DNA of 61,774 nt, taken from NCBI GenBank assembly GCA_018060545.1, contig JAGOVW010000004.1, positions 1-61,774 of the forward strand. Reading direction: 5' to 3'. Below are positions 11,988 to 46,847 of the stretch, piece by piece; positions within the stretch are counted from its first letter, which is position 1, and each line of letters begins with the position of its first letter. A model generated the notes under the pieces. The model ran no database searches and had not been told where the DNA came from. It saw only the letters and a list, made by a program, of their open reading frames with translations. The stretch is from Minisyncoccota bacterium (lineage in GTDB: Bacteria > Patescibacteriota > Minisyncoccia > Phycocordibacterales > UBA2100). The position numbers and the translations under genes were made by a program.

Positions 11988-12033
11988 AGGGGGCATTGTA
12001 GCAGGCCGGCAGCCACCCTGCCAAAGGGAGCCT

Positions 12034-13110
12034 TTATGCGGCATTAGGGGGCATCGTCGCTTTCAGGGCAGGCAGTACTTCCGCGAAAAAGCGGTCGTAG
12101 CGCAGGTGCTCGGCAAAAGCCTTGCGTGCAGCGCGCTGCATGTTGGCAAAAGATTCGTCGGTGAGAGTTGCATAGAAATCGTGCACTATCTCGCCCAAAC
12201 GATGCACTTCGGTGTGCGGCACCCGCAAAATGAATTTCGAATAGTCCAGTGCATTTTCAAGCGGCAGCACCATATCGGTATCAATGAGTATTGGAATACG
12301 ACCCAAGGAGAGTGCTTCATAAAAACGTGCCGAGTAGTTCCCATCACCCTTCGGTGCGAGTACAAAATCTGAATCGAGCATGTTTTGGATGTACTCCGCC
12401 CGCGCCTGCGTGGGATCAACCTTGGTTGTTGCCGCATTGCCGCCAAATGAGTCGCGGATGATGAAGTTGGTTTTAACACGCGCATCATGACTAAGCACCT
12501 CCATCGCCCACCGCCGAAAGAAAATACCTCGCTTGTATACTAAATGCTGCGGATTGTGCGTCATAAACGCCAGTACGTCCAGAAGCACATTCTTAACCAA
12601 GTACCTCACTATAGTTTTTGTATTCGGAAACCCCGCGTACCCACAAAACCCAACTATAGGCTTTGCACTCTTCTTTCGAATGGACACCTCCCTCCCTTCG
12701 CCTAAGTCTTCCACATATCCTGGGAAAATAATCTCATTAGGTTCAATAGACTTCCTATATTCAGTACCCTTGAAAGCAACCACATATTCTCTGCGCACAT
12801 GCGTTTTGTGCGCTAAATCTCCTCCAATGAATAGATATGTCGGCTTCCCTACGTTTTGCGCCTGGGTATAGACTGATTCAAAATATCGATTCCAGACCTC
12901 ACTAGGTCGCTTCATTGCCTGGGGCACCAACACAGCGTCCGCCTCCTCAAGCTGCGATGTGAACGTAATGGCAGAAAGATCCCAGTCACTTGGCAAACCT
13001 TTAAAGAGCAGAGGTTCTAGGTCCCCGCCCTGAGTCGCATGTGTGCGTACAATCCGAATCGAAGGTTTATGAGGAGCAAAAGGGGCCGCTAGATACAGAC
13101 GTATTCCCAT
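12034..13110 (-). CDS. Exostosin-family (GT47-like) glycosyltransferase
   Basis: SDFVLAPKGDGNYSARFYEALSLGRIPILIDTDMVLP. Start may extend to 13134. Confidence 0.8.
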   Translation of the reverse strand: MGIRLYLAAPFAPHKPSIRIVRTHATQGGDLEPLLFKGLPSDWDLSAITFTSQLEEADAVLVPQAMKRPSEVWNRYFESVYTQAQNVGKPTYLFIGGDLAHKTHVRREYVVAFKGTEYRKSIEPNEIIFPGYVEDLGEGREVSIRKKSAKPIVGFCGYAGFPNTKTIVRYLVKNVLLDVLAFMTHNPQHLVYKRGIFFRRWAMEVLSHDARVKTNFIIRDSFGGNAATTKVDPTQARAEYIQNMLDSDFVLAPKGDGNYSARFYEALSLGRIPILIDTDMVLPLENALDYSKFILRVPHTEVHRLGEIVHDFYATLTDESFANMQRAARKAFAEHLRYDRFFAEVLPALKATMPPNAA

Positions 13111-13124
13111 AGCAACACAGTTGA

Positions 13125-15095
13125 TTAAAACCACTTCTCAAGACGCTCGAGCGCGATCCAGAACCCTTCTCCTCCATTTTCGTGCCCTTGCCATATTTCA
13201 GGAATAAACCCGGCAGCGGGAGCTGCCCTCTGCAAATCATAAGAAAGTTGCTTAAAATCAAGAGTGCCTTCTCCGATCTGCAGCCCCTCCTCTCCCACAC
13301 CTGCCCCATCAACGACGTGTAAGTAGGCAATATGGGGCCCAAGCGCTGTCACAAATTCGGTCATTGTTCGACTTAAGTGATTCGCGGCAAGGAAGGAGTG
13401 CGACGTGTCAAAGCACAGTCGATACCCATAGCGAGCACAAAAACGAGCGGTGTCCTCGGGGTCCAAAAAGAGATTGTGGAACATCTGACCTCCCAAGAGC
13501 CATGGATATGGAGGCATGGTTTGAATAATAATTTCAACTCCCTCTTGGGCTACCTGGGACAAGCTGTCTGCTACCCGTGCATACAGTACATCTCGATCTC
13601 CAGGTTTAAGTGGGGCGTGCTTGGTGAACCCGCCCACGTTCACAATAATCATCGGCTTTTTGGTCTTCGGAAACGACTCTTTGAGTATGCGAGTGTGGTC
13701 CACGCAGCGTTGTAAGTTTGCAATCGACAACTGGCGGTAAGCATCATCTTCTGAAGCCAAGTCTAGGATGTGATCATTTTCAAATGTTTCTACCCCATGC
13801 ACCACGAGCCCCACATCGTACACACCTTCGCACATTTTTCGTGGATCGAGCCCCAAGTCACGATAGCTCATGTGAAACTCCAAGAAATCAAAATTTGATT
13901 TCCCAAGCATAGTTTTAAAATCATGAAAGCGGACAGGTATCCCGAATGGGCGCTTGAAAGAATAGTTTCTCGGGAGCACAACTTTGTCGAGCAAGTCTGT
14001 TGGATAAAAGACATCTCCCTCCTTCACGTCACGCCGCGACAACCGCCCAATGAGATTACCTTTTTTGTGCGGTTGAAGACCACGCCCAGGACTTTTAATA
14101 GACACCATGTCTTCTGTGATACGTTCACCTTTTTTAACAGCACGTGTTGCCACGAGACTCTTCGCAAGGTTGGCGCGGTTCATACGCTCCCCTTGGGTCA
14201 TTGAACGTTTGGTGTGCGTGCCAATCGATGCTTCGACTTGGCGAATCGCTTCTACCATCTCACGGAACTCTTCAGGGAGCAGTGACGCTTTGTGGTCAGT
14301 GCCTTCCATATCACGATCTATAGTGATGTGCTTTTCTACAATCTTTGCTCCGCGTGCAACTGCGGCTACTGCAACGTGCACTCCACGCTCGTGACCAGAG
14401 TAGCCATAGAGCGCGGTGCCGAGCTTATCCATGAGCTGCAGCTGAATATCCTGAAATGGGGCTGGGTAGGTTGAATTACAATGCATGAGAACATACTTCG
14501 CACCCAGGCGTCGCAAGAGCCGGTTCGCGTCTCCAATCTCTTGTTCGTCAGCCATTCCGGTTGAGACAATGACTGGCTTTTTTGTGCTCACCAACGCTTG
14601 AAGCAATTCGTGGTTTGTCAGATCCGGTGAGCCCACTTTATACGCATCTACACCATACTCTTCGAGACGCCGTGCACTTACCACGTCGAATGGTGTACAA
14701 AGTGGAAACACACCACGCTCTTTCGCGTAGTCCATAAGCGCAAATACCTGCTCGGGTTTTAAGTCAACTTTTGAAAGTAGGTCAAGTGAGTACTGCGTGG
14801 TGAGGTTAACACTCGCATCACTCGAGTTCTGTGTCACATACAAACTCGGAAGATCGCGGAGCTGGAACTTGACGCAATCCGCACCGGCTTCCACGGCCTT
14901 ATCAATTAGAGTTCGGGCCAACTCGGGATCACCGTTGTGATTAATGCCAATTTCAGCAATGACAAAGACGGGCTCGTTTTGTCCCACATACCGCGTCCCA
15001 AATTTTATGCGCCTAGGAGGCCCCAGTAATACACTCTGGGCTCGTCGCCAGAATGTGCCGACTTTCTTGCGCACCGCGTTTAGAACACCAGACAT
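13125..15095 (-). CDS. neuB: N-acetylneuraminate synthase family (NeuB) + SAF + C-terminal xylose-isomerase-like TIM barrel
   Basis: VIAEIGINHNGD, CVKFQ, YSGHE, VEKHIT; SAF-like KSLVATRAVKKGERITEDMVSIKSPGRG; C-terminal CFDTSH and LHVVDG. Confidence 0.88.
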   Translation of the reverse strand: MSGVLNAVRKKVGTFWRRAQSVLLGPPRRIKFGTRYVGQNEPVFVIAEIGINHNGDPELARTLIDKAVEAGADCVKFQLRDLPSLYVTQNSSDASVNLTTQYSLDLLSKVDLKPEQVFALMDYAKERGVFPLCTPFDVVSARRLEEYGVDAYKVGSPDLTNHELLQALVSTKKPVIVSTGMADEQEIGDANRLLRRLGAKYVLMHCNSTYPAPFQDIQLQLMDKLGTALYGYSGHERGVHVAVAAVARGAKIVEKHITIDRDMEGTDHKASLLPEEFREMVEAIRQVEASIGTHTKRSMTQGERMNRANLAKSLVATRAVKKGERITEDMVSIKSPGRGLQPHKKGNLIGRLSRRDVKEGDVFYPTDLLDKVVLPRNYSFKRPFGIPVRFHDFKTMLGKSNFDFLEFHMSYRDLGLDPRKMCEGVYDVGLVVHGVETFENDHILDLASEDDAYRQLSIANLQRCVDHTRILKESFPKTKKPMIIVNVGGFTKHAPLKPGDRDVLYARVADSLSQVAQEGVEIIIQTMPPYPWLLGGQMFHNLFLDPEDTARFCARYGYRLCFDTSHSFLAANHLSRTMTEFVTALGPHIAYLHVVDGAGVGEEGLQIGEGTLDFKQLSYDLQRAAPAAGFIPEIWQGHENGGEGFWIALERLEKWF

Positions 15096-15145
15096 GTAAC
15101 CACTCTACCTGAGAAACTTCAGATTGTCAGTTGTTTGAGTGACGC

Positions 15146-17074
15146 CTATTTCAAGGAGTTTCTAAAAATTTGAGCAAGACTCACACGATCAAATCGGTGA
15201 TATTCGAGCACCTCCTGATTCTGTCCACACAGGGGAATCTCGGTCACTCCGTGGAGCGTAATGCGCGTATCAAGCCCCAAGCGCCCCACCGCAGCTGCCA
15301 GATGTTCACCAAGTCCACCTTTCACGTAATGGTTATCGAGCACAATAATGCGAGAAAATCGCTTGGCAATCTCGGTAAACCAGGCGTCGTCTAGTCGATT
15401 GAGCCATGGCATGTTGTACACAGCAACCGAGGTACCTTGCTTCTCCATTTCGTCCGCAGCGGCATACGCCTCCGTCGTCATGATGGGACCGTAGGCAATC
15501 ACCGCAAGATCTTTACCCTCTTTGAGGCACGTTCCGACACCCACAGCATCCAAGGAGTGTGCTGGTGTCTTGAATGGGATATTCCACGGAACACTCACCA
15601 GGCGAATGTAGGTACTGTGTACGTTCTTGTGGAGCGCATACTCCACCGCACGCATCACCTCACCCTCGTCAGTTGGTTCGACAACAACCAGTTCAGGGTG
15701 CGCACTCATAATAGCGATGTCGCGTACTGATTGATGTGAGTGACCTGGCATTCCCGGCAGAATCCCTGCAAGCCCTCCCATGTAGACCACCTTAGTGTGC
15801 TCCGTTGCATTATTGTACATCTGCTCGTTTGCGCGTGGTGTCATGAAGCATGCAAACGAATTCACGACTGGGGTAATCCCTTCAAGCGCCAAGCCACCAG
15901 CGAACGAAACCATATCTTGCTCTGCAATCCCGGCTTGTATATAGCGATTAGGATACTTGTACTTAAACGGTAGCAGCCCAAGATCCTTGGTTAGATCTGC
16001 ATCCATGACCATGAAATCTTTACTCTTCCCTCCCTCCGCTACAAGCGCATCACCGTACGCCTTAATGAGGCTTTGTGAACCTGTTGTTTGTGGGCGCGCA
16101 TGCAACACTTCTTCTTCCGTGAGTAACATCCCTGCCTTTTGTTTCTTTAAAAGATTGTTTATGTCAGCAACAAGATGTTTCACCGCTGCTGCATACATTT
16201 CAGGACTCAGTGCCCCGCTATGAAAGTTGTAGATACCTTTTGCGTCAACTTTTTCCATGAATGGGACCCCTTTGCCTTTTACCGTATCGGCAATGATTAC
16301 TTGCGGACGCTTCTTCTCTTTACGTGTCGCCGCAATCACTTTCGCAAGCGCCTTCATGTTGTGTCCATCCACGCGATACACTTTCCAACCAAACGCCGCA
16401 AACTTTGCTTCCAAGTCACCCAAATCGCTCGTATCTTTTACCCAGGTATCCGACTGGATTTTATTATGATCCACAATCGCCACGATGTTTGCGTATCCGT
16501 GGTTTGCGGTCGGTTGTAGCGACTCCCAGAACTGCCCTTCCTGCAATTCACCGTCACCAGTGAGCACGAAGAAGGTGCCGGCTCTTTTCTGCGCACGATA
16601 TGCCTTGGCCATGCCACGCGCTTTTGAAATACCCATACCAAGAGACCCTGTGTTTGTTGGGATGTGCTCGGTACCTACATCAGGGTGCCCCGGCAACCCT
16701 CCCTGGCGTCGCAATCCCTCTATCAGCGAGTACGGCAACTTGCCCAACCCGATGAGCGCCGCATAGAGTGCTGGTGCATCGTGTCCTTTTGATGAGAAGT
16801 ATACGTCTGCGATTTTTGCATCAGAATTTGGATTTTTCAGCACCTCGCTCCACAAGTACGTCACTATGTCGAGTGAGCTCATGCAGGTCCCAATGTGCCC
16901 TGACCCAGCGGTCTGAATCATGTACAACGTATTGAGTCGGTTGATGTGCGCCAGCACAGCCGCGCGCTCCAACGGCTTTTTTATAACTTTCCGAATGCGG
17001 CTAATTTCAGTCAGCGGAACCCGTACACGCATGTAGCCCTCTTGTGCTGTTTTTGTGAATGTTGCTTCTCCCAT
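15146..17074 (-). CDS. Transketolase/DXS-like TPP-dependent enzyme (fused N, pyrimidine-binding and C domains)
   Basis: GSGHIG, SKGH, GHPD, TGSLGMG, TPP motif GDGELQEG...N, GIAEQ. Confidence 0.88.
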   Translation of the reverse strand: MGEATFTKTAQEGYMRVRVPLTEISRIRKVIKKPLERAAVLAHINRLNTLYMIQTAGSGHIGTCMSSLDIVTYLWSEVLKNPNSDAKIADVYFSSKGHDAPALYAALIGLGKLPYSLIEGLRRQGGLPGHPDVGTEHIPTNTGSLGMGISKARGMAKAYRAQKRAGTFFVLTGDGELQEGQFWESLQPTANHGYANIVAIVDHNKIQSDTWVKDTSDLGDLEAKFAAFGWKVYRVDGHNMKALAKVIAATRKEKKRPQVIIADTVKGKGVPFMEKVDAKGIYNFHSGALSPEMYAAAVKHLVADINNLLKKQKAGMLLTEEEVLHARPQTTGSQSLIKAYGDALVAEGGKSKDFMVMDADLTKDLGLLPFKYKYPNRYIQAGIAEQDMVSFAGGLALEGITPVVNSFACFMTPRANEQMYNNATEHTKVVYMGGLAGILPGMPGHSHQSVRDIAIMSAHPELVVVEPTDEGEVMRAVEYALHKNVHSTYIRLVSVPWNIPFKTPAHSLDAVGVGTCLKEGKDLAVIAYGPIMTTEAYAAADEMEKQGTSVAVYNMPWLNRLDDAWFTEIAKRFSRIIVLDNHYVKGGLGEHLAAAVGRLGLDTRITLHGVTEIPLCGQNQEVLEYHRFDRVSLAQIFRNSLK

Positions 17075-17122
17075 ATCTGCCCACTATCTCATGGGTAAAG
17101 TGTGGGCGCAATAATGACCAAA

Positions 17123-18565
17123 TTAGGAGTCAACACTGACCTGTTGCCAGTTTGCGTAAAAATCAAGCGCAGTCACCCCTGGTTCGCGCCACCCATTCCC
17201 TGAAAGACCGGGACCACCAAACGGCATGTGCGGTTCGCTACCAAAAGTCGGCCCATTAATGCGAACTACGCCAGCGCGATATTCTCGCGCAAATTTCTTC
17301 GCCACATCCAGAGTACGTGTGTGAATTGCGCTCGAAAGACGGTAAGGCGAATCCTTCGCGAGACGCAACGCCTCATCGTAGCCAGAGACTTTGCGGAATA
17401 TCACGACCGGACCAAATAATTCCTGCCTCCATAAAGGGTCGGTCTCTTTTACATTCTCAAGTACCGTTGGTTGCATAAAATACCCTTGGTCCCCATTGCG
17501 CTTTCCACCAAGCGCGATAGTAACGCCGCGGTTCTGCGATTCCTGGACAGCAGCCAGCAAGGCGTTGAGTCGCTCTTCACTAATCAGAGCCCCCATATCC
17601 GCATCACCAACACCGATACGCATCGCCCGTGCTTTTTCAATAAAGGCTTGCTTGAATGTGTCATAGACTCCTTCGTATATCAGGAACCGGCTCGCAGCGG
17701 CGCAGCGTTGTCCGCTATCCACAAACGCAGAGGCGACTGCAAAGTTTACGGCCAGCAGTAGATCTGCATCGTCACATACTATAAATGGATTCTTACCACC
17801 TGCCTCAATGGAAACTTTTGCGAGCCGTGGTGCACTCGCCTCAACGATTCTTGCCCCAGTCGATGACGAACCTGTAAAGGATATGAAAGAGACGTCAGCG
17901 TGCGATGCAATTAAAGCGCCGATTCCTGCACCCGTACCTTGCAGGACATTGAATACTCCATCAGGCACTCCTGCGTCTTTGAGTACCTGTGCAAACCACA
18001 CAGGAATATATGGTGTAAGTTCGTGCGCCTTCAAGATTACTGCATTCCCGCACAAGAGCGCCGGAAACGTTTTTGCAGCAATCTGAGCCAGTGGAGTGTT
18101 AAACGGTACATACAGTGCACCGACACCTACAGGCGCACGCACTAGCTCCACCGTTCGCCTCGGATGAGAAGTTGGTAGTGGTATAGGCTCAAAACGAGCC
18201 AATTCTCCTGTAAAATAAGTTCCCGAAACGCTCGCCCCGCCAACCTCCCCCATCACTTCCGCATCCGGCCGCCCACACTCCTGCGCGATGATACTAGCGG
18301 CCTCTTGCGCACGCTCTTTAATGAGTTCAGCAGCTTTCTTCAGTATCAAAGCACGTTCTGACAATGGAGTAGCTGCCCAAAGGGGAAAGGCATCTGACGC
18401 AGATGTCAGAGCGCGCGCAAGTTCACTCTCGCCTGCAGCGGCCACATCCGCCAATTTTACACCGGACGCTGGCGCATATTTCTCCTGACTGGGCCCAGAT
18501 CCAGCTACAGCACCTCCTCCAATCCATGACTGAACTGTTTTCGGGTACTGGTGCATAGTATGCAT
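17123..18565 (-). CDS. Aldehyde dehydrogenase
   Basis: FTGSSSTG, EAGGKNP (catalytic Glu), SGQRCAA (catalytic Cys), ELFGPV. Confidence 0.92.
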   Translation of the reverse strand: MHTMHQYPKTVQSWIGGGAVAGSGPSQEKYAPASGVKLADVAAAGESELARALTSASDAFPLWAATPLSERALILKKAAELIKERAQEAASIIAQECGRPDAEVMGEVGGASVSGTYFTGELARFEPIPLPTSHPRRTVELVRAPVGVGALYVPFNTPLAQIAAKTFPALLCGNAVILKAHELTPYIPVWFAQVLKDAGVPDGVFNVLQGTGAGIGALIASHADVSFISFTGSSSTGARIVEASAPRLAKVSIEAGGKNPFIVCDDADLLLAVNFAVASAFVDSGQRCAAASRFLIYEGVYDTFKQAFIEKARAMRIGVGDADMGALISEERLNALLAAVQESQNRGVTIALGGKRNGDQGYFMQPTVLENVKETDPLWRQELFGPVVIFRKVSGYDEALRLAKDSPYRLSSAIHTRTLDVAKKFAREYRAGVVRINGPTFGSEPHMPFGGPGLSGNGWREPGVTALDFYANWQQVSVDS

Positions 18566-18581
18566 ACTTCCATGCTAAGCC

Positions 18582-19685
18582 TTATTTTGCAAAGCCCAAT
18601 GTCTCTATCATATCAACTTCATCGATCAGTGAGCCGAATTTCGTTATTTCGGTGATTGCCTCCACTTCTATGCGTCTGCCAGCTGCATGACCTAAAAGCA
18701 CGTCACCAACCTTCCTTAAAAGAAGCTCTCTCATAAATAGAGGGAGTTGCCCAATCATGGGGCCGTACGAGGGGTTAATAGAACAATATGCATCCAAAAA
18801 TGACTGCACTGCATCAGGGATAGCCACTGCGGGACTGCGGTCGCAAAAAACAACATGCTGGCGCACTAGTCGGTGGCATGCCATACCAATATCTACTGAT
18901 AGCACGCCCCAACTCGCATTCCCGAAATCAATGATTGCATTGAGACGCTCGTCTTGGAAAAGGAAATTCTGGGGGTGCAGATCGGTGTGGATTACCTGTT
19001 CCGATAAGGAGCCTGACTGGCGCAAACTTTCCACCTCAGCATGTGCTCGAAGTGCCTTCTCGCGAAGCTGGAGTATTTCGACGTGACGTGCTACATCACT
19101 ACCTTTCAGTACATCCATCGCAGCATCCCACTCACGGACATCGATCGAACCGTACGCTTTTTGAGGAAAGCTGGAGACGTGCGGATACTTCGCGAGAGCA
19201 AGGTGCATGCGCGCTATTCCTCGAGCTGCTACTTCCAATTCCACATCCGATCCGCGATAGTACATTCCATGTACGAATGGAAATCGCTGCCACAGAGCCC
19301 CCTCATGTTCCACTACATATGTCTGCATTTCGGGCGTCGGGAGGGGCGCTGGCACTGGCACCCCTTCTGCGTCCAGAAAAAGGAGTAGTTCACTTGATTT
19401 CTGCACATCGTCTAATGCGGCACGCTTTGCACGTCGATACACAAACAACTCAATGCGAGTACCGTGCAACTCTTCAACAATCCAATTGTCACTCATCAGA
19501 CCCGCCATTATGCGCTGAGCGGTGCCGACGACCGTACTGTCGGCAGCGAGCACCCGACTCACTTCTGCCAATAGGGCGACCTCATCAGGCGTCGCAGGCT
19601 GAAGCAGCACCTCCGAATAACTATGCGCATTTGCACCAAAAAGATCCCGCGGATCATGTGGCAATCGACATTGGCCAATGATCAT
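18582..19685 (-). CDS. APH/homoserine-kinase-II-like phosphotransferase
   Basis: VIHTDLHPQNFLF and IIDFG motifs. Confidence 0.8.
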   Translation of the reverse strand: MIIGQCRLPHDPRDLFGANAHSYSEVLLQPATPDEVALLAEVSRVLAADSTVVGTAQRIMAGLMSDNWIVEELHGTRIELFVYRRAKRAALDDVQKSSELLLFLDAEGVPVPAPLPTPEMQTYVVEHEGALWQRFPFVHGMYYRGSDVELEVAARGIARMHLALAKYPHVSSFPQKAYGSIDVREWDAAMDVLKGSDVARHVEILQLREKALRAHAEVESLRQSGSLSEQVIHTDLHPQNFLFQDERLNAIIDFGNASWGVLSVDIGMACHRLVRQHVVFCDRSPAVAIPDAVQSFLDAYCSINPSYGPMIGQLPLFMRELLLRKVGDVLLGHAAGRRIEVEAITEITKFGSLIDEVDMIETLGFAK

Positions 19686-20254
19686 ACAACTGGAAATTCT
19701 CGCTCATCTCGGCTGTACGCATCAAGCAGAAGTTCAGCAAATTCTCTTAACGACCCCTCCGCTGCTCGCGCAGCTGTAATAACATCCGCAATCGATCTGA
19801 TGCGGCGCGTACAGTTAGCAGGCGCCACAGTGAGACCCCCCTGAGCCTTGAGCATCTGCATCGCTTCATAATCATCGATATCGTCGCCCATGTATGCACA
19901 GGCATCCCCAGATACAGCATGTAACGCAAGCCACGCCTCAACACGCGACTTCTTATCGCTTCCGATGGGAGCAAAGACAGCCTCGTGCCATCTCCCACTT
20001 TTCACCGACGGCAGTGCATTAATCTTATCAACAATACTCTGCAACGGCTCACCGTCCCCCGAAACAAAAACAACGCGGATTCCCATTTCCCGCATAAATG
20101 AAAGTCCCTGCCCGTCAATAAGTGACCGCCGCTTAATCAAAACGACATCATTCTGAAATATAAGGCGCAATTCGTCACCGGAAAAGAAAACGCCATCCGC
20201 GTCGATAAATAATACAGATACCCGCCTCAGTGACTCAGTTGCTGGTATTGTCAT
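19682..20254 (-). CDS. KdsC-like HAD phosphatase, copy 2
   Basis: FIDADGVFFSG, DGQGL, YMGDDIDD, VAPAN. Start set at MTIPATES. Confidence 0.8.
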   Translation of the reverse strand: MTIPATESLRRVSVLFIDADGVFFSGDELRLIFQNDVVLIKRRSLIDGQGLSFMREMGIRVVFVSGDGEPLQSIVDKINALPSVKSGRWHEAVFAPIGSDKKSRVEAWLALHAVSGDACAYMGDDIDDYEAMQMLKAQGGLTVAPANCTRRIRSIADVITAARAAEGSLREFAELLLDAYSRDEREFPVV

Positions 20255-20261
20255 ACGACGT

Positions 20262-21092
20262 CTACAACGCCCCCCACCCGCCATCCGCAACAATTGTGGT
20301 CCCGGTTATGTACGACGCTGCTGGGGACACTAAAAATAATATTAGCCCAGCATATTCGTCCGGACGTGCCATACGACCCAGAGGAACATGCTTTACGTAT
20401 GCATCTTTAAAACGTTGGTCACTCTTTGGGTTTTCGACCCCTCCGAAGGCAACCGCGAGGGATCGAATGCCGTGCGGGCCCCATTGTACCGCCAGGTCGC
20501 GCATCAGCGCGTTCATACCAGCCTTTGATGCGCCGTACGAAGCATCTTTCACAAACCGCTCTTTCCCATCGTCAACTTTGTATTGATAAATTCCATGGTC
20601 AGGAGAGTTCAGCGAGTAATGGGACGAGATACCAACAATTACCCCAGACCCTTTTTCTACCATACGTTTTCCGACCACTTTCGAACACACGGCGGCGCTT
20701 TTGAGGTTTATCTTGATGACCGTGTCCCAAAGTTCCATGGAATACTCCTCAAATGGCTTACCTGCCCCCTGCGGATCGTTTGGCGACGCCTTCCAGCCCG
20801 CATTGTTAATGAGAATAGTTGGCACACCCCATGTCGCTTCGAGTCCTTGGATAGCTTTCTCAACGTCTTGCTCATTCGTAACATCTGCTTTGAGGAATCG
20901 CAGTGGGTATTGTTCGGCAAGACGCTGCAACGTTTCGTTCGGAGTATCCACCACATCAAGCGATGCGACGCGAGCACCTGCCTTGACAAGCACCTCTGTC
21001 ATATGTGTCGCCAACTTTCCCAGGCCACCAGTGATGACTACAACTTCTTTCTCTAAACTGAACAATCGGGATACGTATCTCTCGTCAATCAT
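20262..21092 (-). CDS. Short-chain dehydrogenase/reductase
   Basis: TGGLGKL, LINNAG, YGASK, PLGRMARPDE. Confidence 0.9.
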   Translation of the reverse strand: MIDERYVSRLFSLEKEVVVITGGLGKLATHMTEVLVKAGARVASLDVVDTPNETLQRLAEQYPLRFLKADVTNEQDVEKAIQGLEATWGVPTILINNAGWKASPNDPQGAGKPFEEYSMELWDTVIKINLKSAAVCSKVVGKRMVEKGSGVIVGISSHYSLNSPDHGIYQYKVDDGKERFVKDASYGASKAGMNALMRDLAVQWGPHGIRSLAVAFGGVENPKSDQRFKDAYVKHVPLGRMARPDEYAGLILFLVSPAASYITGTTIVADGGWGAL

Positions 21093-21094
21093 AC

Positions 21095-21625
21095 TTAGTA
21101 TGTAAGTTTCGTCACGTAAGAGTTAGTGTGACTGTTCCATGTATTCTGGGCACGCATGATGATCTCGGCCACTTCCGCGATTACACCATGCCCACCAGTG
21201 GCATTCGTAACAATATCTGCCACTTTCTTGTTTTCACGTGATCCGTCGGCAGGAGTCACCGCTACACCCGCTTTATGCATGCAGTATAAGTCGCTCCAAT
21301 CATCTCCAATATACAGAACTTCTTCAGGTTGGACTTTATATTTTTCACCCAGCACATCGAACAAATCCTTCCCCGTGTCGTTTATAGCCTGCTTATAAAT
21401 TAGGTCAACTTTGAGCTCACCAGCGCGCCTTTCTACCGCAGAACATTTGCGCGCAGTAAAAAGTACGAGAGGTATACCACTGCGCAGGAGCACAGCTGTT
21501 CGCGGCGCATCCTTACTCCAAAAAGACTTGAGCTCTTCACCGCCCCCCAAATAGATCTTTCCATCGGTAAGGACCCCGTCCACATCGGAAACAACAATTT
21601 TTATTTTTTTAAGCTTCTTTTTCAT
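21095..21625 (-). CDS. KdsC-like HAD phosphatase, copy 1
   Basis: SDVDGVLTDG, YIGDDWSDL, GGHGVIAE. Confidence 0.88.
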   Translation of the reverse strand: MKKKLKKIKIVVSDVDGVLTDGKIYLGGGEELKSFWSKDAPRTAVLLRSGIPLVLFTARKCSAVERRAGELKVDLIYKQAINDTGKDLFDVLGEKYKVQPEEVLYIGDDWSDLYCMHKAGVAVTPADGSRENKKVADIVTNATGGHGVIAEVAEIIMRAQNTWNSHTNSYVTKLTY

Positions 21626-22368
21626 AGTTCCACATTACTTGCTCGGTCCCTTTTGATTCTCTCATTCATCAAGACTTCAGCAATATCGAAATCGAGCGGG
21701 TGATTAATGTCGAATGCGTCGAGCTCATCCATGAGCACATATTTCAAAATAGTGCCTGATGTTGTACCTATTTCACGATGCGTCTTGGTCCACGCAACAC
21801 CCGAGGCACCGAGGTGCTGATACATTTCTGGAAATAGTTGTCGTGGCATGTTGTAGGGCTGCTCATGACCTGTCACTTCAGGAGAAAATGCAGGGACCAT
21901 GTACTCACCCTCTGTACGCCACGCTTTATACGGGTGGTGCGAAAGGCGCGCAATAGGACGCACTGAGTGCACATCAGGGTTCTGCATCAAGAGCTCAATT
22001 GCTGCGTCAATCGTTGCAGCAGTGCGCAGTGGCGTCGTAGGAGAAAAGCGAGCAACAATATCCGGTATGTAGCCTTCTTCGCGCTCGAGCGTATCTAAGG
22101 CGTGAATGACAAATTCTTGATCAGTCGCCAAGTCCCCCGAGATTTCCTCCGGGCGCAAAAAAGGAACTTCAGCACCATGGTCTCGCGCCACTTCCGCGAT
22201 CTGCTCGTTGTTAGTTGAGACAATCACACGCCCCGCGAGTTTCGCACGCAAAACTTCGTCAAGAGTCCACACAATAAGTGGCTTTCCTGCGAGTAGTTTG
22301 ACGTTCTTTTTAGGCACCCCTTTTGAGCCGCCACGCGCAGGTATGATGGTGAGTACTTTTAAATTCAT
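21622..22368 (-). CDS. neuA: Acylneuraminate cytidylyltransferase (CMP-ulosonate synthetase)
   Basis: IIPARGGSKGVPKKNVK, LRPEEISGD, PTTPLR, DINHPLDF. Confidence 0.9.
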   Translation of the reverse strand: MNLKVLTIIPARGGSKGVPKKNVKLLAGKPLIVWTLDEVLRAKLAGRVIVSTNNEQIAEVARDHGAEVPFLRPEEISGDLATDQEFVIHALDTLEREEGYIPDIVARFSPTTPLRTAATIDAAIELLMQNPDVHSVRPIARLSHHPYKAWRTEGEYMVPAFSPEVTGHEQPYNMPRQLFPEMYQHLGASGVAWTKTHREIGTTSGTILKYVLMDELDAFDINHPLDFDIAEVLMNERIKRDRASNVEL

Positions 22369-23747
22369 AGTGACGATAAGATAGCTTCAGCGACCCGCTG
22401 AGAGGACTTACCATCCACACGGTACAACAACTTTTCACGTAGTTCAACTCGTTCGCGTTCTTCTGCCTTTGGGTTATCGAGATATCGGCGGATGGCCTGT
22501 ACCAGTTCTTCTTTATTTTTGGCGAGCGCAGCCCCTTTTGTATCCATCACATAGATGTAATGGTTACGATCATAGTTCCGGACTATTGATTCCGGGTATG
22601 GCAATACTCGGTCCCCGTCGTATCCAATTAAGATAACAGGCTTGTCGAATGCCGCACCGTCTAAGGTCATCGTAGACTCAATGTTCAAAACCATGTCACT
22701 GTGGTAAATTGAGTTCGCTAAATGTAAAATGTCTTTGTCAGTAAATGTCCACGCAAAAGTTTGCGCAGCGGATGTATCTAGTGACTTCTCTTGTCCAGAT
22801 CCGAAATAGGTACCAGGGCGATCAATAACGACATGCTTAAAGTCTTTCCTCTGCTCCGTCTTACAGGTGTACTTGGGATGCACTCGTGCCAGGATGGTGG
22901 TATTCCGTGGCAACTCGCCAGCCTCGATAGCGTCATCAACATGCTTCACCACCTCATCAGTGAAGGGCATTTTCCAATCACCAGGAACAGCGAACAGTAG
23001 TATGTGGTGCGCTGGATTGATACCCATACGTGCACAAAATGCTTCGCGGGTTTCGATTGCTTCTTTCTGAGCGTACACATCGAATTGCGGAAAACCGGTC
23101 ACGATTACTTGATCTTCACGATAGTCCCCAAGCTGCACCGCCTCAATTCGATTGAGTTCGTTAAATACAAGAATTTTGTCTGCACGAACACGCGTAAATG
23201 CCTTGGTGGTGAGCACATCCCAACTCTTTACGGTCGTCATGGTCTTAATGCCACGCTTTCTCGCAGCTTTTAAAAGCCGGCAGTCTTCGGCAGAAAACAT
23301 GTTGGGGGCAAAGACTATATCAGGCTGATACTTGGTGAACACATCGGCAGCATAATCATCAGGAATCATCCAGTAGCACATTCGCAACAATTCACGCCAC
23401 AATCGTGCTCGCCCAAGAAAGCCAAGCAGGCGCTCGATTGAGTAGCGGAGCAGCTTCTTGTGAATGAGATACATGTCATGCCGACGCAAATACACTGAGT
23501 AGGTGGGAATGGAGTTCCATCCAGCATGATTCCATATTGCCTCCGCTCGCGTTGATGCACTTGGCAGAAGATCGACGACCACATTGCTGTCCGCAAAATT
23601 TTCTCTGTAGTACTCAAGACGTTTCTCAGAACGAATGAGTAGGACGATACGGTGCCCGGAAGTCTTCACGTGGCGCAGTACGTCTGACCGGAGAATGTTT
23701 TTCTCTGTGTCGCCGTCATATATAGAAACAGCAATAGTCTTTTGCAT
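22365..23747 (-). CDS. CDP-glycerol glycerophosphotransferase-like GT-B enzyme (candidate ulosonate transferase)
   Basis: SWDVLTTK, VTGFPQFD, RVHP, STMTLDGAAFDKPVI, DGKSSQRV; next to neuA. Confidence 0.65.
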   Translation of the reverse strand: MQKTIAVSIYDGDTEKNILRSDVLRHVKTSGHRIVLLIRSEKRLEYYRENFADSNVVVDLLPSASTRAEAIWNHAGWNSIPTYSVYLRRHDMYLIHKKLLRYSIERLLGFLGRARLWRELLRMCYWMIPDDYAADVFTKYQPDIVFAPNMFSAEDCRLLKAARKRGIKTMTTVKSWDVLTTKAFTRVRADKILVFNELNRIEAVQLGDYREDQVIVTGFPQFDVYAQKEAIETREAFCARMGINPAHHILLFAVPGDWKMPFTDEVVKHVDDAIEAGELPRNTTILARVHPKYTCKTEQRKDFKHVVIDRPGTYFGSGQEKSLDTSAAQTFAWTFTDKDILHLANSIYHSDMVLNIESTMTLDGAAFDKPVILIGYDGDRVLPYPESIVRNYDRNHYIYVMDTKGAALAKNKEELVQAIRRYLDNPKAEERERVELREKLLYRVDGKSSQRVAEAILSSL

Positions 23748-23759
23748 ACAGAGGGCGTA

Positions 23760-24608
23760 CTACTTTCTCGCAGTCAGGGCGTACCCTTCCGTAAAATCCG
23801 GTGTTTGTGTAGGATATGAATACACACCGCGCAATAGTGCAATCTTCATCTGCTCGACCTTCCACAACACCTTCACCAAGAGCAACAGTGGCAAACGCCA
23901 TATTCCTGAACGCTCTCGAATTGAGGAAATGACATAGGTATAGAAATGTCTCTGGACCGTCGCATATACATCACGCGGGTCAGACAAGGCCTCAACCACC
24001 ACACTCTTGAAACCAGTTTGATGAGCAAGCCATTCCCATTTGTAATGGGTGTACCGATTATAGTCGTAAGGCTTTTGATGGATGCGCATCATGAATGGAA
24101 CGGTCGCTAAGAGCACACCTCCGGGCTTTAATATGCGAAACACCTCTTTTAAGATTTCTTCTGTATTGGGCAAGTGTTCAAATGTGTTCGATGAAATGAC
24201 CACATCGAAAGCAGCGTCTTTGAATGGCAGTGGTTTTGTTAGGTCTGCTACCACCTGGACTGGCTCGAACGCGCGAAAATCGACTCCGACAGTGGTTTTG
24301 AAACGTTGTGTCAATTCTCCGAATTGACCTGGACCTACCCCGAAATCAAGGACTGTGGCACTCGATGAAATGTCCGCAAGTTCTCGTTTGTAGAAAAGAA
24401 AGTTTTTGCGACGCCATTCACTCCAGGTAGCGTGGTTTTGAGTTGAAGTGACCCCAGACCCTTCATAATCTTGTGGAACATCTGTAAAGAAAGCTTTGCC
24501 CGACCGCACATCATACGATGTATGACATACAGCACACACAGCAGAATCGTTCCGGAGCTTAAGAGAGCCTCGGCACGTCGGACACGCCGTTAGTGATAAG
24601 TAGTCCAT
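23760..24608 (-). CDS. Class I SAM methyltransferase with N-terminal Trm112-like CPxC module
   Basis: MDYLSLTACPTCRG...CAVC, VLDFGVGPG, LPFKDAAFDVV, FEHL, LKPGG. The ORF-track upstream extension overlaps the opposite-strand gene and is rejected. Confidence 0.85.
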   Translation of the reverse strand: MDYLSLTACPTCRGSLKLRNDSAVCAVCHTSYDVRSGKAFFTDVPQDYEGSGVTSTQNHATWSEWRRKNFLFYKRELADISSSATVLDFGVGPGQFGELTQRFKTTVGVDFRAFEPVQVVADLTKPLPFKDAAFDVVISSNTFEHLPNTEEILKEVFRILKPGGVLLATVPFMMRIHQKPYDYNRYTHYKWEWLAHQTGFKSVVVEALSDPRDVYATVQRHFYTYVISSIRERSGIWRLPLLLLVKVLWKVEQMKIALLRGVYSYPTQTPDFTEGYALTARK

Positions 24609-24692
24609 AGGCCAGAGCATAACAGAAAAGGTCGCATCGCGGTAAGTTGTCGCGCAACTATACTTTTTACTCCCACGCTCTATACTGCCCCC

Positions 24693-26135
24693 ATGTTTCA
24701 AGCGATTGGCGATTTCTGGCAGCATAAAAAACACCTCGTGTGGGTCGCTCTTGGTGTGACCGCGCTCCACCTCTGCATCTTCTTTGGCACGGCAGCGCTT
24801 CTTGCGTCGCACGGTGGAAGCATGGCCAATGTCATTAACCACCAGGACGAGCAGGAGTACATTTCGATCGCTCATTCCATGATTGCGCTCGGCGAGTTTC
24901 GCATTAACGGCGGCGTCGAAACTGAAACGTTCCGCACCATTGGATACCCCGCACTGGCCGCATTCATTCTCCTTCTCACCGCTGGCTCATTCTGGGCTAT
25001 CTACATCAGCCACACGTTCATCACGGGGTTAACTGCCGCGGTGACCACTTGGATCGCAGCATTAATCGGTCTCTCGCGCCGAACCAGTATCATCGCTGGT
25101 GTTTTGTTTGGTATGAGCTCGGGACCATTCCTCCTCACTACTTCCGGCATGGGAAGTGACAAAATGTTTCCGCTCCTCTACGCGCTTTCTGCGGCACTCC
25201 TCCTCACCTTTACCGCTACCAATCGCTTGAGACAGGCCGCGCTCATGGGGGCTATTATGGGTATCGCCACACTGATTCGCCCGATAGGTATACTCGCGTC
25301 GCTGCCATTATTCACCGCCATTCTGTTTGTCCCACCGCTGACCGTCTTTCCTGCTATCCCCGATCGTATTCGTGCAACAGTGATAGCGCTTATGGTCTTT
25401 GTCGCAGTGATGGTGCCGTGGCACTATCGCAATTACGAATTAGCAGGACGGTTCTCTCTATCGTCTCTCCCTGTTTACAACTTTGTGTACTACAACATCC
25501 CTCTGTATTTGGCTGGGTGGGAAGGCAAAAATGAAATTGCCGAACGCGACCGCATCATTGCGGAATTAGGGAATCCAAATCTGATGACGTTGCGCGGATA
25601 CTTTTACCACGACGAACTTGCCGTGATGCAGAAGGATTTCATTAAGGAAAAGGCAGTCCCGTACACCTTGTTCCACGTGTACAAAATGATTCCATTCTTT
25701 TTAGGAAGTGGGTTCAACGTGGCACACGCTATTCTTGCGATTGAGGCGCCTTCGATGCGCTCATCTCTATTCCCTACCGAGCAGGAAAATCTCACCTCAG
25801 CTATTTTGCGTGGCGACTATGCCGTGGTGTGGCGCAACGTCACGGCGTACCCCGTGGTCACACTTGAGCGACTCTCGTGGCTCGTGATTTTCGGACTGGC
25901 CTTCCTTTCTCCACTTTTGGCACCCGCTGGCCCTGTGCGACGTTTCCTCGTACTTGCCGCCCTGTTCATTCTCTCGATGGCATTCCTATCCAGCCCCGTC
26001 ATACAGCCCCGCTACCGCGTGCCGATAGAACCGCTCTTGTGGCCAATGTTCTTGTATGCCCTCTTGGGCGGCTACTACACGCTCGCACTGTGGTACAAAA
26101 ACCGTGGTTTCGCAAAGCAAAAAGCGCAGCTATAA
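24693..26135 (+). CDS. GT-C fold (PMT/ArnT/GT39-like) membrane glycosyltransferase
   Basis: Multi-TM; DEQEY in the first loop, FRTIGYP, TLIRP, PRYRVP. Confidence 0.7.
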   Translation: MFQAIGDFWQHKKHLVWVALGVTALHLCIFFGTAALLASHGGSMANVINHQDEQEYISIAHSMIALGEFRINGGVETETFRTIGYPALAAFILLLTAGSFWAIYISHTFITGLTAAVTTWIAALIGLSRRTSIIAGVLFGMSSGPFLLTTSGMGSDKMFPLLYALSAALLLTFTATNRLRQAALMGAIMGIATLIRPIGILASLPLFTAILFVPPLTVFPAIPDRIRATVIALMVFVAVMVPWHYRNYELAGRFSLSSLPVYNFVYYNIPLYLAGWEGKNEIAERDRIIAELGNPNLMTLRGYFYHDELAVMQKDFIKEKAVPYTLFHVYKMIPFFLGSGFNVAHAILAIEAPSMRSSLFPTEQENLTSAILRGDYAVVWRNVTAYPVVTLERLSWLVIFGLAFLSPLLAPAGPVRRFLVLAALFILSMAFLSSPVIQPRYRVPIEPLLWPMFLYALLGGYYTLALWYKNRGFAKQKAQL

Positions 26136-46741: not shown

Positions 46742-46847
46742 ACCGATAGTATACTCGCAGCTACTCCGGTGGCGAGACAGGTGTGGGGTACAGCACACGA
46801 CAAAGCGGCGCATTTCTGCGCCGCTTGCGATCAATGCGTCATCCGCA

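Follow-up and report, generated by a model that had tools for sequence, protein, structure and literature searches.

The window analysed here, a 61.8-kb stretch of DNA from an ultra-small bacterium of the CPR/Paceibacteria type, carries a run of 12 co-oriented genes (9792-24875); all the genes described below lie on the minus strand. Nine intact, abutting genes with a spacing between neighbours of -4 to +50 nt form a block at 13125-23747, and the run extends beyond it on both sides, with a methyltransferase gene upstream and GT47-like and Wzy_C/TPR genes downstream. A preliminary description of the same DNA counted ten genes in the block, possibly by taking the TIM domain of one protein separately; the count is nine, while co-orientation, abutment and intact motifs stand. 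Catalytic motifs were read directly in the NeuB, transketolase-like (TK), aldehyde dehydrogenase (ALDH), SDR, kinase and both HAD proteins. Gene overlaps of 4 nt suggest translational coupling. An eight-gene order is repeated on an independent contig (L090) with proteins 41-70% identical, and the co-location therefore goes beyond chance. The large ORFs of the window were also scanned for Epimerase_2 (NeuC), DegT aminotransferase and hexapeptide acetyltransferase domains. None was found, nor were Pse or Leg precursor genes found within the 61.8 kb, in agreement with the earlier statement that amino-sugar precursor genes are absent locally.

The first gene of the run encodes a SAM-dependent methyltransferase (23760-24875; Pfam Methyltransf_11/23/25). 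Methyltransferases also flank the cassette in L001, L005, L006 and L094, and this enzyme probably O-methylates the glycan or the sugar. The next product is a TagF/TagB-like GT-B transferase (22365-23747; Pfam Glyphos_transf, 47 bits), a candidate for the transfer of the CMP-activated ulosonate; its gene is directly upstream of NeuA also in L001, L005, L006, L007 and L094. The Pse/Leg transferases of Tannerella forsythia (Tanf_01245, BFO_1060; PMC5420450) are a precedent for TagB-like enzymes that transfer nonulosonic acids. With them it has in common the GT-B/TagB-type fold and a gene position beside the genes for CMP-nonulosonate synthesis, although its match to the NCBIfam BFO_1060 family model is weak (61 bits; cutoff 200). 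The third gene encodes a NeuA-like CMP-ulosonate synthetase (21622-22368; Pfam CTP_transf_3, 77.7 bits), scoring 122 bits with the PseF model, under its cutoff of 205.7. At the other end of the run are a GT47 (exostosin-like) glycosyltransferase (12034-13134; Pfam Exostosin_GT47, 61 bits), syntenic in L001, L090, L092, L094 and L119, and a Wzy_C/O-antigen-ligase-like membrane protein with TPR repeats (9792-12044; Pfam Wzy_C, 72.2 bits), syntenic in L001, L005, L090, L092 and L094, which may act as polymerase or ligase for the glycan. The reading as a CMP-ulosonic-acid pathway that includes a TagB-like transferase, as first described, is supported.

The ulosonate-forming enzyme is a fusion of 656 amino acids (13125-15095) with a NeuB domain (residues ~43-295; Pfam 257.8 bits), a SAF domain (~312-368; 55.7 bits) and a xylose-isomerase-like TIM barrel (~375-656; AP_endonuc_2, 70.4 bits). 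NeuB/NnaB is the nearest model for the NeuB part, which scores 319 bits with TIGR03569, under the cutoff of 399.65. The metal and PEP ligand residues of N. meningitidis NeuB are aligned in this domain, and the position of R314, which we take to contact the N-acetyl group, is an invariant Ser in NeuB-TIM.

The TIM part was modelled with AF2 (pLDDT 93), and its Foldseek matches were endonuclease IV (top), MJ1311, UlaE and ketose 3-epimerases. The fold is like that of MJ1311 (3wqo), UlaE (3cqj) and Mtb End (5zhz), with a TM of 0.6-0.74 at an identity of 11-19%, and the DxxH, HxxD and E metal-ligand-type positions are conserved as in other members of the xylose-isomerase-like superfamily, whereas the usual strand-4 Glu of the superfamily is a Gln. 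Unlike these three proteins, the domain always stands behind NeuB-SAF and carries additional invariant His (H34, H59, H264). The fusion partner of NeuB in L086 is a lyxose/mannose-isomerase-type cupin; in L094 a cupin sits between NeuA and NeuB-TIM, and in L005 and L006 a PMI-type cupin gene directly follows NeuB-TIM. Because of the analogous fusion in L086 and the fold neighbours (ketose 3-epimerases, UlaE and MJ1311), the domain is plausibly a metal-dependent ketose-aldose isomerase feeding NeuB, and the isomerase role suggested beforehand for the extra barrel thus keeps its plausibility. A phosphoesterase role may also be considered, since endonuclease IV is the top fold match and strand 4 carries the Gln.

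Among species-representative genomes, at least 591 stretches keep the NeuB-SAF-TIM fusion, and 116 loci with the full-length fusion, from many phyla, were fetched. NeuA lies within 10 kb of the fusion in 87 of the 116, while TK, ALDH and KdsC were found in none of them within a 10-kb neighbourhood. Since these fusion loci have no TK, ALDH or KdsC nearby, NeuA and NeuB-TIM are a self-sufficient pair. L001 has the SecA/GatB/Wzy neighbourhood in common with the window and a NeuB-TIM that is 74% identical, and its cassette consists of the transferase, NeuA and NeuB-TIM only.

The TK is a three-domain ThDP protein of 642 amino acids (15146-17074; three TK Pfam domains). It scores 369 bits with NF004559 (cutoff 488) and stays under every NCBIfam transketolase cutoff; NCBI annotates members of its subfamily plainly as 'transketolase'. 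The nearest solved structure is human TKT (4kxu; EC 2.2.1.1), with which it shares the three-domain architecture, the GDG...N ThDP/Mg motif, the cofactor-activating Glu and the four catalytic His (H37, H77, H110, H258, E366, D155 and N185 are kept, for ThDP, Mg and the catalytic His). In contrast, R318 is replaced by a gap or Ile, S345 by Asp, H416 by Leu and R474 by Ser, these four presumably being the phosphate-binding residues of human TKT, and D424, the Asp reading the C2-OH of the acceptor, is replaced by Pro. The pattern is identical in 22 of 22 TK homologs compared, and K428, H445 and R451 are invariant in the subfamily. As all four phosphate-binding residues are replaced, we assign the protein to a distinct subfamily and not to the sugar-phosphate transketolases.

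Between NeuA and the TK, five further enzymes are encoded. The ALDH (17123-18565; NAD(P)-dependent, 480 amino acids; Pfam Aldedh, 445.5 bits) has the catalytic Cys (GQRC) and Glu (EAGGK), reaches no NCBIfam equivalog cutoff, and is 45-64% identical to the ALDHs of L005-L007 and L088-L090. The SDR, a classical oxidoreductase (20262-21092; 160.8 bits for Pfam adh_short_C2), contains the TGxxxG and YxxxK motifs. Its identity is 63% with the SDR of L090 and 46% with an SDR beside an APH kinase in L074, but only 36-41% with the usual cassette SDRs, which are 50-85% identical among themselves; judged by these identities, it is of another type than the usual cassette SDR and not its ortholog.

The DxD and GDD motifs are intact in both HADs. 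The first, a KdsC-type ulosonate-phosphate phosphatase (21095-21625), scores 123.7 bits with TIGR01670 (cutoff 106.95) and 91.6 bits with the KDN-9-P phosphatase model. The second (19682-20254) is a divergent KdsC/Kdn-9-P-phosphatase-like protein scoring under both NCBIfam cutoffs (49.9 bits for KDN-9-P phosphatase, 49.5 for KdsC), with the motifs FIDADG, S, K and GDDIDD intact and an ortholog in L090 that is 57% identical. An ATG start at 20254 (190 amino acids) is more likely than that of the TTG ORF (203 amino acids). Its 3' end overlaps by 4 nt the start of the gene for an APH-fold small-molecule kinase of 367 amino acids (18582-19685; Pfam APH, 88.3 bits). The nearest solved structure of the kinase is homoserine kinase 2ppq (E 4.5e-8), and the family is rare, with 15 homologs among 5.8 billion proteins. 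HxDxxxxN and DFG-like motifs are present, HxDxHPxN, DF(G) and HRLVRQ are invariant in the family, and the substrate is possibly anionic. The kinase has the same operon position in L090, adjoins the SDR and NeuB-TIM in L074, and adjoins a KdsC-like HAD in L091. Together with the second HAD it is a rarer add-on, found in the window and L090.

The context of the TK subfamily was compared for 10 members, i.e. nine fetched loci and the window. CTP_transf_3 and an SDR are nearby in all 10 and an ALDH in nine, L086 having a GFO/IDH/MocA oxidoreductase instead. Each of the 10 contexts has an ulosonate-forming enzyme: NeuB-TIM in the window, L005-L007 and L090, plain NeuB with a nearby HAD in L086, L089, L173 and L174, and a KDPG-type aldolase in L088. 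TK, ALDH and SDR (the module) are found together with NeuA in CPR, Spirochaetota and Chloroflexota alike, so that the co-occurrence of TK and ALDH with neuB, whose absence from other genomes had been named beforehand as refuting, was found. The NeuAs of module-bearing loci, including that of the window, form one clade (support 97/96), and the module label is clustered on the NeuA tree (as low a value in 0 of 500 shuffles). In the NeuB-TIM tree, on the other hand, module-bearing loci are mixed with those lacking the module (as low a value in 121 of 500), and NeuB-TIM is equally similar in both groups. L094 counts against the tie between NeuA and the module, as it has a module-type NeuA without the module, and the two could travel together from mere adjacency. 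In L088 a CTP_transf_3-SDR fusion is encoded, tying the SDR to activation with CMP.

We tentatively propose, with slightly less than even confidence, that the 12-gene operon makes, tailors, CMP-activates and installs a sialic-acid-like 3-deoxy-2-ulosonic acid, non-amino because amino-sugar genes are absent from the window. The core steps are drawn from families and conservation, and the place of the module from comparative data. The TIM domain would convert a common ketose, free or phosphorylated (e.g. fructose or fructose-6-P), to the matching aldose of mannose type, which the NeuB domain would condense with PEP to a Kdn-like nonulosonate, possibly as the 9-phosphate, and the KdsC-type HAD would take the phosphate off the ulosonate. 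Most likely, SDR, TK and ALDH then tailor the ulosonate and not its precursor. We infer their chemistry as an ordered set, in which a ketol is made and cleaved and the aldehyde is oxidised: the SDR would oxidise the glycerol-like tail at its penultimate hydroxyl, giving a ketol; the TK, which retains the machinery for ketol cleavage but has no phosphate pocket, would release the last two carbons as glycolaldehyde bound to ThDP; and the ALDH would turn the new aldehyde into a carboxylate. The product would be a dicarboxylic 3-deoxy-heptulosaric (Dha-type) sugar, in line with the omega-oxidised, ulosaric-type product envisaged in the preliminary description, which we find plausible. Dha is placed in the LPS core of Rhizobiaceae by Russa (1991, as cited in PMC5713287). 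The module-specific NeuA would activate the sugar to its CMP donor, the TagB-like enzyme would transfer it, and GT47 and Wzy_C would build and then polymerise or ligate a surface glycan. The kinase and the second HAD probably pass one intermediate through a phosphorylated form.

The module is placed after the synthase because the TK has lost its phosphate site and the NeuA/NeuB-TIM pair stands without the module, because the ulosonate-forming partner is interchangeable, and because it is NeuA rather than NeuB-TIM that varies together with the module and an SDR-NeuA fusion exists. The loss of D424 may be read in the same way: the Asp reads a free hydroxyl, and in a pyranose ulosonate that position would be the ring oxygen. 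Against trimming count the replacement of ALDH in L086, the absence of an evident acceptor for the C2 unit, which a transketolase needs, and the Asp at the S345 position, unfavourable for a nearby carboxylate, though the subfamily has invariant basic residues of its own in K428, H445 and R451. As the SDR is not an ortholog of the cassette SDR, the ketol-forming step is less certain in the window than in its relatives.

The reverse order, originally put forward, has TK, ALDH, SDR and kinase acting before NeuB on a central sugar phosphate. They would turn it into a non-amino aldose of an unusual kind (chain-extended, branched or omega-oxidised) for condensation with PEP; in one version the TK provides the tetrose from which NeuB forms a heptulosonate, whose end is then oxidised by SDR and ALDH. 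All the genes are placed within a single operon, between NeuA and NeuB-TIM, the kinase and KdsC-type phosphatases suit a route from sugar phosphate over ulosonate phosphate to ulosonate, the TK retains every residue required for ketol transfer, and the ulosaric-type end product would be the same as with tailoring. We nevertheless consider this order unlikely for TK, ALDH and SDR, whereas the kinase may fit either order. With its phosphate pocket and C2-OH residue lost, the TK cannot use sugar phosphates of central metabolism as a normal transketolase would, and an ALDH ahead of NeuB would tend to use up the aldehyde on which NeuB depends. The 116 fusion loci, the three different ulosonate-forming enzymes, the NeuB-TIM similarities and tree set against the NeuA tree, and the fusion in L088 all speak against it as well.

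Less probable still is branching. The SDR would form a keto-ulosonate, whose keto group would receive a branch of two carbons (glycolyl or dihydroxyethyl) from the ThDP enzyme, as has been proposed for ThDP enzymes and branched deoxysugars; the ALDH would handle the leftover aldehyde of the donor or oxidise the branch. E1-type enzymes put C2 branches on keto sugars in antibiotic deoxysugar pathways, and such enzymes occur as a fused E1 alpha/beta-type ThDP enzyme, not a TK, beside kinase, SDR and NeuB-TIM in L074 and as an extra E1 alpha/beta pair nearby in L088. Branching would, however, yield no sugar aldehyde, yet the ALDH is present in nine of the 10 TK-subfamily loci, and a gene that would supply the donor is not apparent. 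The most improbable reading is a canonical nonulosonic acid (Neu5Ac, Leg, Pse or plain Kdn) with precursors encoded elsewhere, in which TK, ALDH, kinase and HADs would serve another pathway or general metabolism and be merely co-located, since the conserved gene order in L090, the recurrence of the module with NeuA across phyla, the active-site changes common to the whole TK subfamily, the 4-nt overlaps and the Ser at the presumed N-acetyl contact all oppose it, even though the precursor search was confined to the 61.8-kb window, NeuB/NnaB is the nearest model and the TK label at NCBI is an ordinary one.

Among known systems, the Kdn pathway of Bacteroides thetaiotaomicron comprises a Kdn-9-P synthase, a KdsC-type Kdn-9-P phosphatase and a CMP-Kdn synthetase. 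This pathway and the animal Neu5Ac-9-P route have a NeuB-family synthase, a KdsC/Kdn-9-P-phosphatase-type HAD and CTP_transf_3 in common with the window; they too are without amino-sugar precursor genes and, by family assignments, would start from a sugar phosphate of central metabolism. The window differs in the TIM barrel fused to a NeuB below the equivalog cutoff, in the TK, ALDH, SDR, kinase and second HAD inserted between NeuA and NeuB, and in its TagB-like transferase. In the literature searched, we found no report of a remodelling route with TK and ALDH on a sialic-acid-like sugar, and no description of the widespread NeuB-KdsC-SDR-ALDH-NeuA-TK cassette present in L089, L173 and L174. 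In this cassette a KdsC-like HAD follows NeuB, and an Aldedh gene has the same position in L173 and L174. Window and cassette share the TK subfamily with the same phosphate-site losses, the NeuA clade, a KdsC-type HAD and ALDHs at the identities given above. The window differs in having NeuB-TIM as synthase, placed last, an SDR of the other type, the added kinase and second HAD, and a TagF-like transferase where the cassette has a KpsC/S-like one (Capsule_synth).

The cassette consists of nine intact genes on the minus strand of the window (positions 13125-23747), identified from an ORF listing together with profile searches. The intact, co-oriented block reported in the preliminary description is thereby confirmed as nine genes. 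In the order of transcription these encode a TagF/TagB-like transferase, a NeuA-like CTP_transf_3 enzyme, a KdsC-type HAD protein (21095-21625), an SDR, a second, divergent KdsC-like HAD protein (HAD2, 19682-20254), an APH-fold kinase, an ALDH, a three-domain transketolase-like protein (TK) and a fusion of NeuB, SAF and AP_endonuc_2 domains of 656 amino acids (NeuB-TIM, after its xylose-isomerase-like TIM barrel). Adjacent genes either share 4 nt or lie no more than 50 nt apart, and each of the nine proteins retains its catalytic motifs. The start of HAD2 is most likely the ATG at 20254 rather than an upstream TTG. Including a methyltransferase upstream, and GT47-like and Wzy_C/TPR genes downstream of the cassette, the co-oriented run comprises 12 genes. 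A scan for promoters and terminators returned sites no more numerous than in shuffled sequence.

Beyond these genes the window forms a large glycan locus, which encodes numerous GT4 proteins along with a carbamoyltransferase and an epimerase-GT4 fusion. Judged by the names of its closest homologs, the DNA is in keeping with a CPR/Paceibacteria genome. A 480 amino acid ORF without Pfam match (24693-26135, plus strand) runs approximately 180 nt into the 5' end of the methyltransferase ORF (23760-24875, minus strand); either one of these ORFs probably has a misassigned start, or the region is a divergent promoter. Additionally, a TraG/VirD4-like coupling protein of 754 amino acids adjoins a secreted protein with lamin-tail and PKD domains (43024-46834, minus strand) in an otherwise cell-envelope region.

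The fusion has the architecture of the NeuB family, with Pfam NeuB (257.8 bits) followed by SAF (55.7 bits). Residues E25, K53, K129, H215 and H236 of N. meningitidis NeuB, the metal and PEP ligands in its structure of 2005, correspond to E48, K76, K153, H235 and H256 in an alignment to 4ipi/1xuu, and these are invariant in 10 diverse fusions. The score is below the equivalog cutoff both for N-acetylneuraminate synthase (TIGR03569, 319.1 bits, cutoff 399.65) and for pseudaminic acid synthase (TIGR03586, 221.8 bits, cutoff 340.25). Furthermore, the position of R314, the N-acetyl contact in the N. meningitidis enzyme, is an invariant Ser in the window protein and the compared fusions. The KdsC-type HAD protein belongs to TIGR01670 (123.7 bits, cutoff 106.95) with HAD motifs I-IV intact, and HAD2 falls below the same cutoff (49.5 bits). 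NeuA matches Pfam CTP_transf_3 (77.7 bits) and reaches no equivalog, scoring 122.3 bits with PseF (cutoff 205.7) and 34-51 bits with the KdsB models. The transferase resembles the BFO_1060 NCBIfam domain model, at a score below its cutoff (61.3 bits, cutoff 200).

None of the large ORFs that were scanned in the 61.8-kb window encodes NeuC, a DegT-type aminotransferase or an acetyltransferase, and a canonical Neu5Ac/Pse/Leg precursor set (NeuC, or dehydratase, aminotransferase, acetyltransferase and nucleotidase) was likewise absent from them. The preliminary description had likewise seen no amino-sugar precursor genes, and it was right on the kind of pathway, a CMP-ulosonate type. The closest described pathway is the Kdn-9-phosphate route, with which the window shares the families of the synthase, the KdsC-type phosphatase and the CMP synthetase. 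To these the window adds the fused TIM barrel, a module of SDR, TK and ALDH, the kinase with HAD2, and a TagB-like transferase, for which there is a precedent in Tannerella forsythia (PMC5420450).

The three-domain NeuB-SAF-TIM fusion is matched by more than 7,000 proteins. At least 591 stretches of species-representative genomes carry it, from cyanobacteria, actinobacteria, proteobacteria, Chloroflexota, Fibrobacterota, CPR and others. Cultured bacteria of the first three groups are among the carriers, which include Rothia, Paraglaciecola and Nitrosomonas eutropha, and many copies have an extra N-terminal CBS domain. No paper describing this fusion was found in full-text literature searches. 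The window proteins were tabulated against every fetched locus, 116 of which hold a full-length fusion. NeuA lies within 10 kb of the fusion in 87 of these 116 loci; TK, ALDH and KdsC were each found in none, and a distant relative of the window kinase in one. A close relative of the window (L001), with the same SecA/GatB/Wzy neighbourhood and a NeuB-TIM of 74% identity, has a cassette of transferases, NeuA and NeuB-TIM only. Therefore, the pair of NeuA and NeuB-TIM can do without the other six genes. A second conserved cassette around NeuB-TIM was seen in Rhodobacterales, Algibacillus and Flavobacteriaceae (L040, L050 and L051, about 8-19 kb in each). It comprises an NTP-transferase, a CBS-GHMP kinase, NeuB-TIM, a SIS (GmhA-like) protein and/or a second stand-alone TIM barrel, NeuA, a class III aminotransferase, a glyoxalase-fold protein, a methyltransferase and two SDRs, and looks like another undescribed ulosonate variant.

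The surroundings of the TK subfamily were read for ten members, namely nine fetched loci and the window. CTP_transf_3 and SDR stand beside TK in all ten and ALDH in nine, and an enzyme forming a 2-keto-3-deoxy acid is always present. This partner is NeuB-TIM in the window and in four loci (L005, L006, L007 and L090), a plain NeuB with a HAD protein nearby in four others (L086, L089, L173 and L174), and a KDPG-type aldolase in L088, whose SDR forms a fusion with a NeuA-type domain. Two trees, one of NeuA and one of NeuB-TIM, were built from the same loci, and the clustering of labels was compared with 500 shuffles. One clade (97/96), with a single exception (L094), gathers the NeuA proteins of TK-bearing loci, whether the synthase there is NeuB-TIM or another, and the module label clusters more tightly than in any of the 500 shuffles. 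In the tree of NeuB-TIM, module-bearing loci are scattered among module-less ones (a value as low was reached in 121 of 500 shuffles), and the nearest neighbour of the window protein is that of the module-less L001. The synthase thus behaves as if its reaction were unchanged by the module, whereas the activating enzyme varies with it. NeuA is adjacent to the module, and co-transfer alone could yield part of the pattern in the NeuA tree.

The TIM domain matches AP_endonuc_2 with 70.4 bits (cutoff 31.1) and has that fold: its AF2 model (pLDDT 93) is matched by Foldseek with probability 1.0 to endonuclease IV, MJ1311 and UlaE. Neighbours in fold are endonuclease IV, the D-tagatose-3-epimerase-like MJ1311, UlaE and ketose 3-epimerases, at TM 0.6-0.74 and 11-19% identity. 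A profile search with the domain finds MJ1311 (E 6e-10), a sequence search of the PDB with the domain alone gave a marginal match only, and NCBIfam gives marginal matches to fructoselysine 3-epimerase and CbiR. Across 15 diverse fusions 36 positions are invariant, including E32, H34, H59, D189, H192, H219, D222, E229, E259 and H264. With respect to the Glu-Asp-His-Glu tetrad of ketose 3-epimerases (DTE/UlaE), the fusions all have D189, H219 and E259; Gln151 occupies the strand-4 position, and Glu147 close to it is variable. Fold and conserved residues alone do not give the function. Three independent observations favour an aldose-ketose isomerase feeding NeuB, which is probably the role of the domain: L086 carries NeuB fused to a lyxose/mannose-isomerase-type cupin, a cupin sits between NeuA and NeuB-TIM in L094, and a PMI-type cupin gene directly follows NeuB-TIM in L005 and L006. 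The suggestion in the preliminary description that the extra barrel is an isomerase is thus probably correct. Such an isomerase would account for the self-sufficiency of NeuA and NeuB-TIM, and it points to a mannose-derived, Kdn-like sugar. Ranked below this is the possible role of an endonuclease-IV-like phosphoesterase replacing KdsC; an hhalign comparison with E. coli Nfo gave a probability of 31% and aligned only three of nine ligand positions.

Kdn-based wall polymers are known in actinobacteria (PMC11481543), where NeuB-TIM sits in wall-polymer-like loci, and a tie between the two may be taken as a lead. The fusion in L086, a Candidatus Saccharibacteria MAG, has 514 amino acids (15039-16583; cupin of lyxose/mannose-6-P isomerase type) and adjoins NeuB, SDR, TK, NeuA, a HAD protein and a GFO/IDH/MocA oxidoreductase, with no ALDH.

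Residues of TK were read in a pairwise alignment to human transketolase, its closest solved structure, and in an alignment of 23 sequences (22 homologs). All three domains are present, and the ThDP/Mg motif (D155, N185), the activating Glu366 and His37, His77, His110 and His258 are kept. R318, S345, H416 and R474 of the human enzyme, the contacts to the substrate phosphate, are replaced by a gap or Ile, by Asp, by Leu and by Ser, respectively, and the position of Asp424, which reads the C2 hydroxyl of the acceptor, is Pro. The same replacements occur in 22 of 22 homologs, including proteins named 'transketolase' from several CPR groups, one spirochaete and one Chloroflexi bacterium, and the window protein scores below all NCBIfam transketolase cutoffs. 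Transketolase (EC 2.2.1.1) is therefore matched in domains, cofactor site, His and Glu residues, and departed from at the phosphate site and the Asp. An ordinary CPR pentose-phosphate enzyme, as the names of 51-56% identical homologs would have it, was rejected because the homologs share the lost phosphate site and those looked up sit in cassettes of the NeuA/SDR/ALDH type. By its residues and surroundings, TK is a non-housekeeping enzyme, predicted to be unable to bind central sugar phosphates in the usual way. In the locus lacking NeuB (L088:2854-9902, Candidatus Sungiibacteriota, complete genome CP066690.1), TK and ALDH occur with a 531 amino acid CTP_transf_3-SDR fusion and an aldolase of KDPG/KHG type (PF01081), which suggests a pyruvate-aldolase version of the pathway.

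The contrast between the trees, the fusion of NeuA to an SDR, the variable synthase beside TK and the loss of the phosphate pocket together place SDR, TK and ALDH most likely after the synthase and before CMP activation. The preliminary description had the unusual enzymes remodelling the precursor of NeuB; on the evidence of trees, fusion and pocket this is probably the wrong direction, the product of NeuB being the more likely substrate.

A chemistry consistent with this placement can be drawn up. The SDR would act on the three-carbon tail, where oxidation of the penultimate hydroxyl would give a ketol; TK, in which the residues for an HOCH2-CO- donor are all kept, would remove the last two carbons, and ALDH would oxidise the exposed aldehyde. 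A nonulosonate would in this way become a 3-deoxy-heptulosaric acid, in pyranose form and of the same structural class as Dha, and an ulosaric product had already been considered in the preliminary description. The loss of Asp424 would be explained, since the position it reads is the ring oxygen in a pyranose ulosonate. Tentatively, and with more doubt than confidence, we propose that transketolases without a phosphate site cleave the terminal ketol of an oxidised nonulosonate, a reaction new to the class, and with SDR and ALDH form the first known route of CMP-Dha type, starting in the window from a bifunctional isomerase-synthase NeuB-TIM acting on a central ketose. Against this proposal, no acceptor for the C2 unit is evident, L086 carries the GFO/IDH/MocA oxidoreductase in place of ALDH, and Asp replaces S345, although K428, H445 and R451 are invariant and particular to the subfamily.

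Sialic-acid-like sugars shape the recognition of bacteria by hosts, phages and partner cells, and CPR bacteria live attached to other cells. If true, the proposal would give a new tailoring logic for ulosonic acids (an oxidation, removal of two carbons by a ThDP enzyme and a second oxidation), a function for a large gene group annotated just as 'transketolase', and, for ulosaric acids such as Dha, a candidate route that can be tested. The interest for glycobiologists and enzymologists is real, and the support, for the pathway as a whole, comes from comparison of sequences and loci. A review of 2012 (PMC3355719) described the activated form and the biosynthesis of Dha as unidentified in plants and algae, and suggested a prokaryotic origin of the algal genes for it. 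According to a reference cited within PMC5713287, the LPS core of Rhizobiaceae contains Dha. Full-text searches of the literature gave no paper tying NeuB to transketolase, and nothing on nonulosonic acid in Patescibacteria or on transketolase with a branched-chain sugar.

The gene order is NeuA-SDR-ALDH-TK-NeuB-TIM in L005-L007 and NeuA-KdsC-SDR-HAD2-kinase-ALDH-TK-NeuB-TIM in the window and L090 (41-70% identity). The SDRs of the latter two, 63% identical, are of a type distinct from the usual cassette SDR: identity to the usual ones is 36-41%, these being 50-85% identical among themselves. An SDR that follows an APH kinase ahead of NeuB-TIM in Uhrbacteria (L074) is 46% identical to this type. 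The kinase family is rare (15 homologs found), its closest solved structure is homoserine kinase, and an invariant HRLVRQ motif beside the catalytic loop hints at an anionic substrate. A relative of the kinase is paired with a KdsC-like HAD protein away from any glycan locus (L091). KdsC, SDR, HAD2 and kinase may then be an add-on that would pass one or more intermediates through a phosphorylated form.

Three of these loci have further features. In L091 (2751-4448) the kinase relative (31% identical) and the HAD protein are inserted between rpsJ (S10) and rplC (L3) of the ribosomal protein operon. In L074 (5519-15099, a Candidatus Uhrbacteria MAG) a class III aminotransferase, a HAD protein, the APH kinase, the SDR and NeuB-TIM are followed by a 741 amino acid fused ThDP enzyme of E1 alpha/beta type, different from TK in a similar neighbourhood, and NeuA is absent within 10 kb. 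Directly upstream of NeuA in L090 (3629-6315) are a phosphopantetheinyl transferase, a phosphatase-fold (HAD-like) protein that we guess to be FkbH-like, an ACP, a MaoC dehydratase and an SDR, which may be a module for an acyl substituent, absent from the window.
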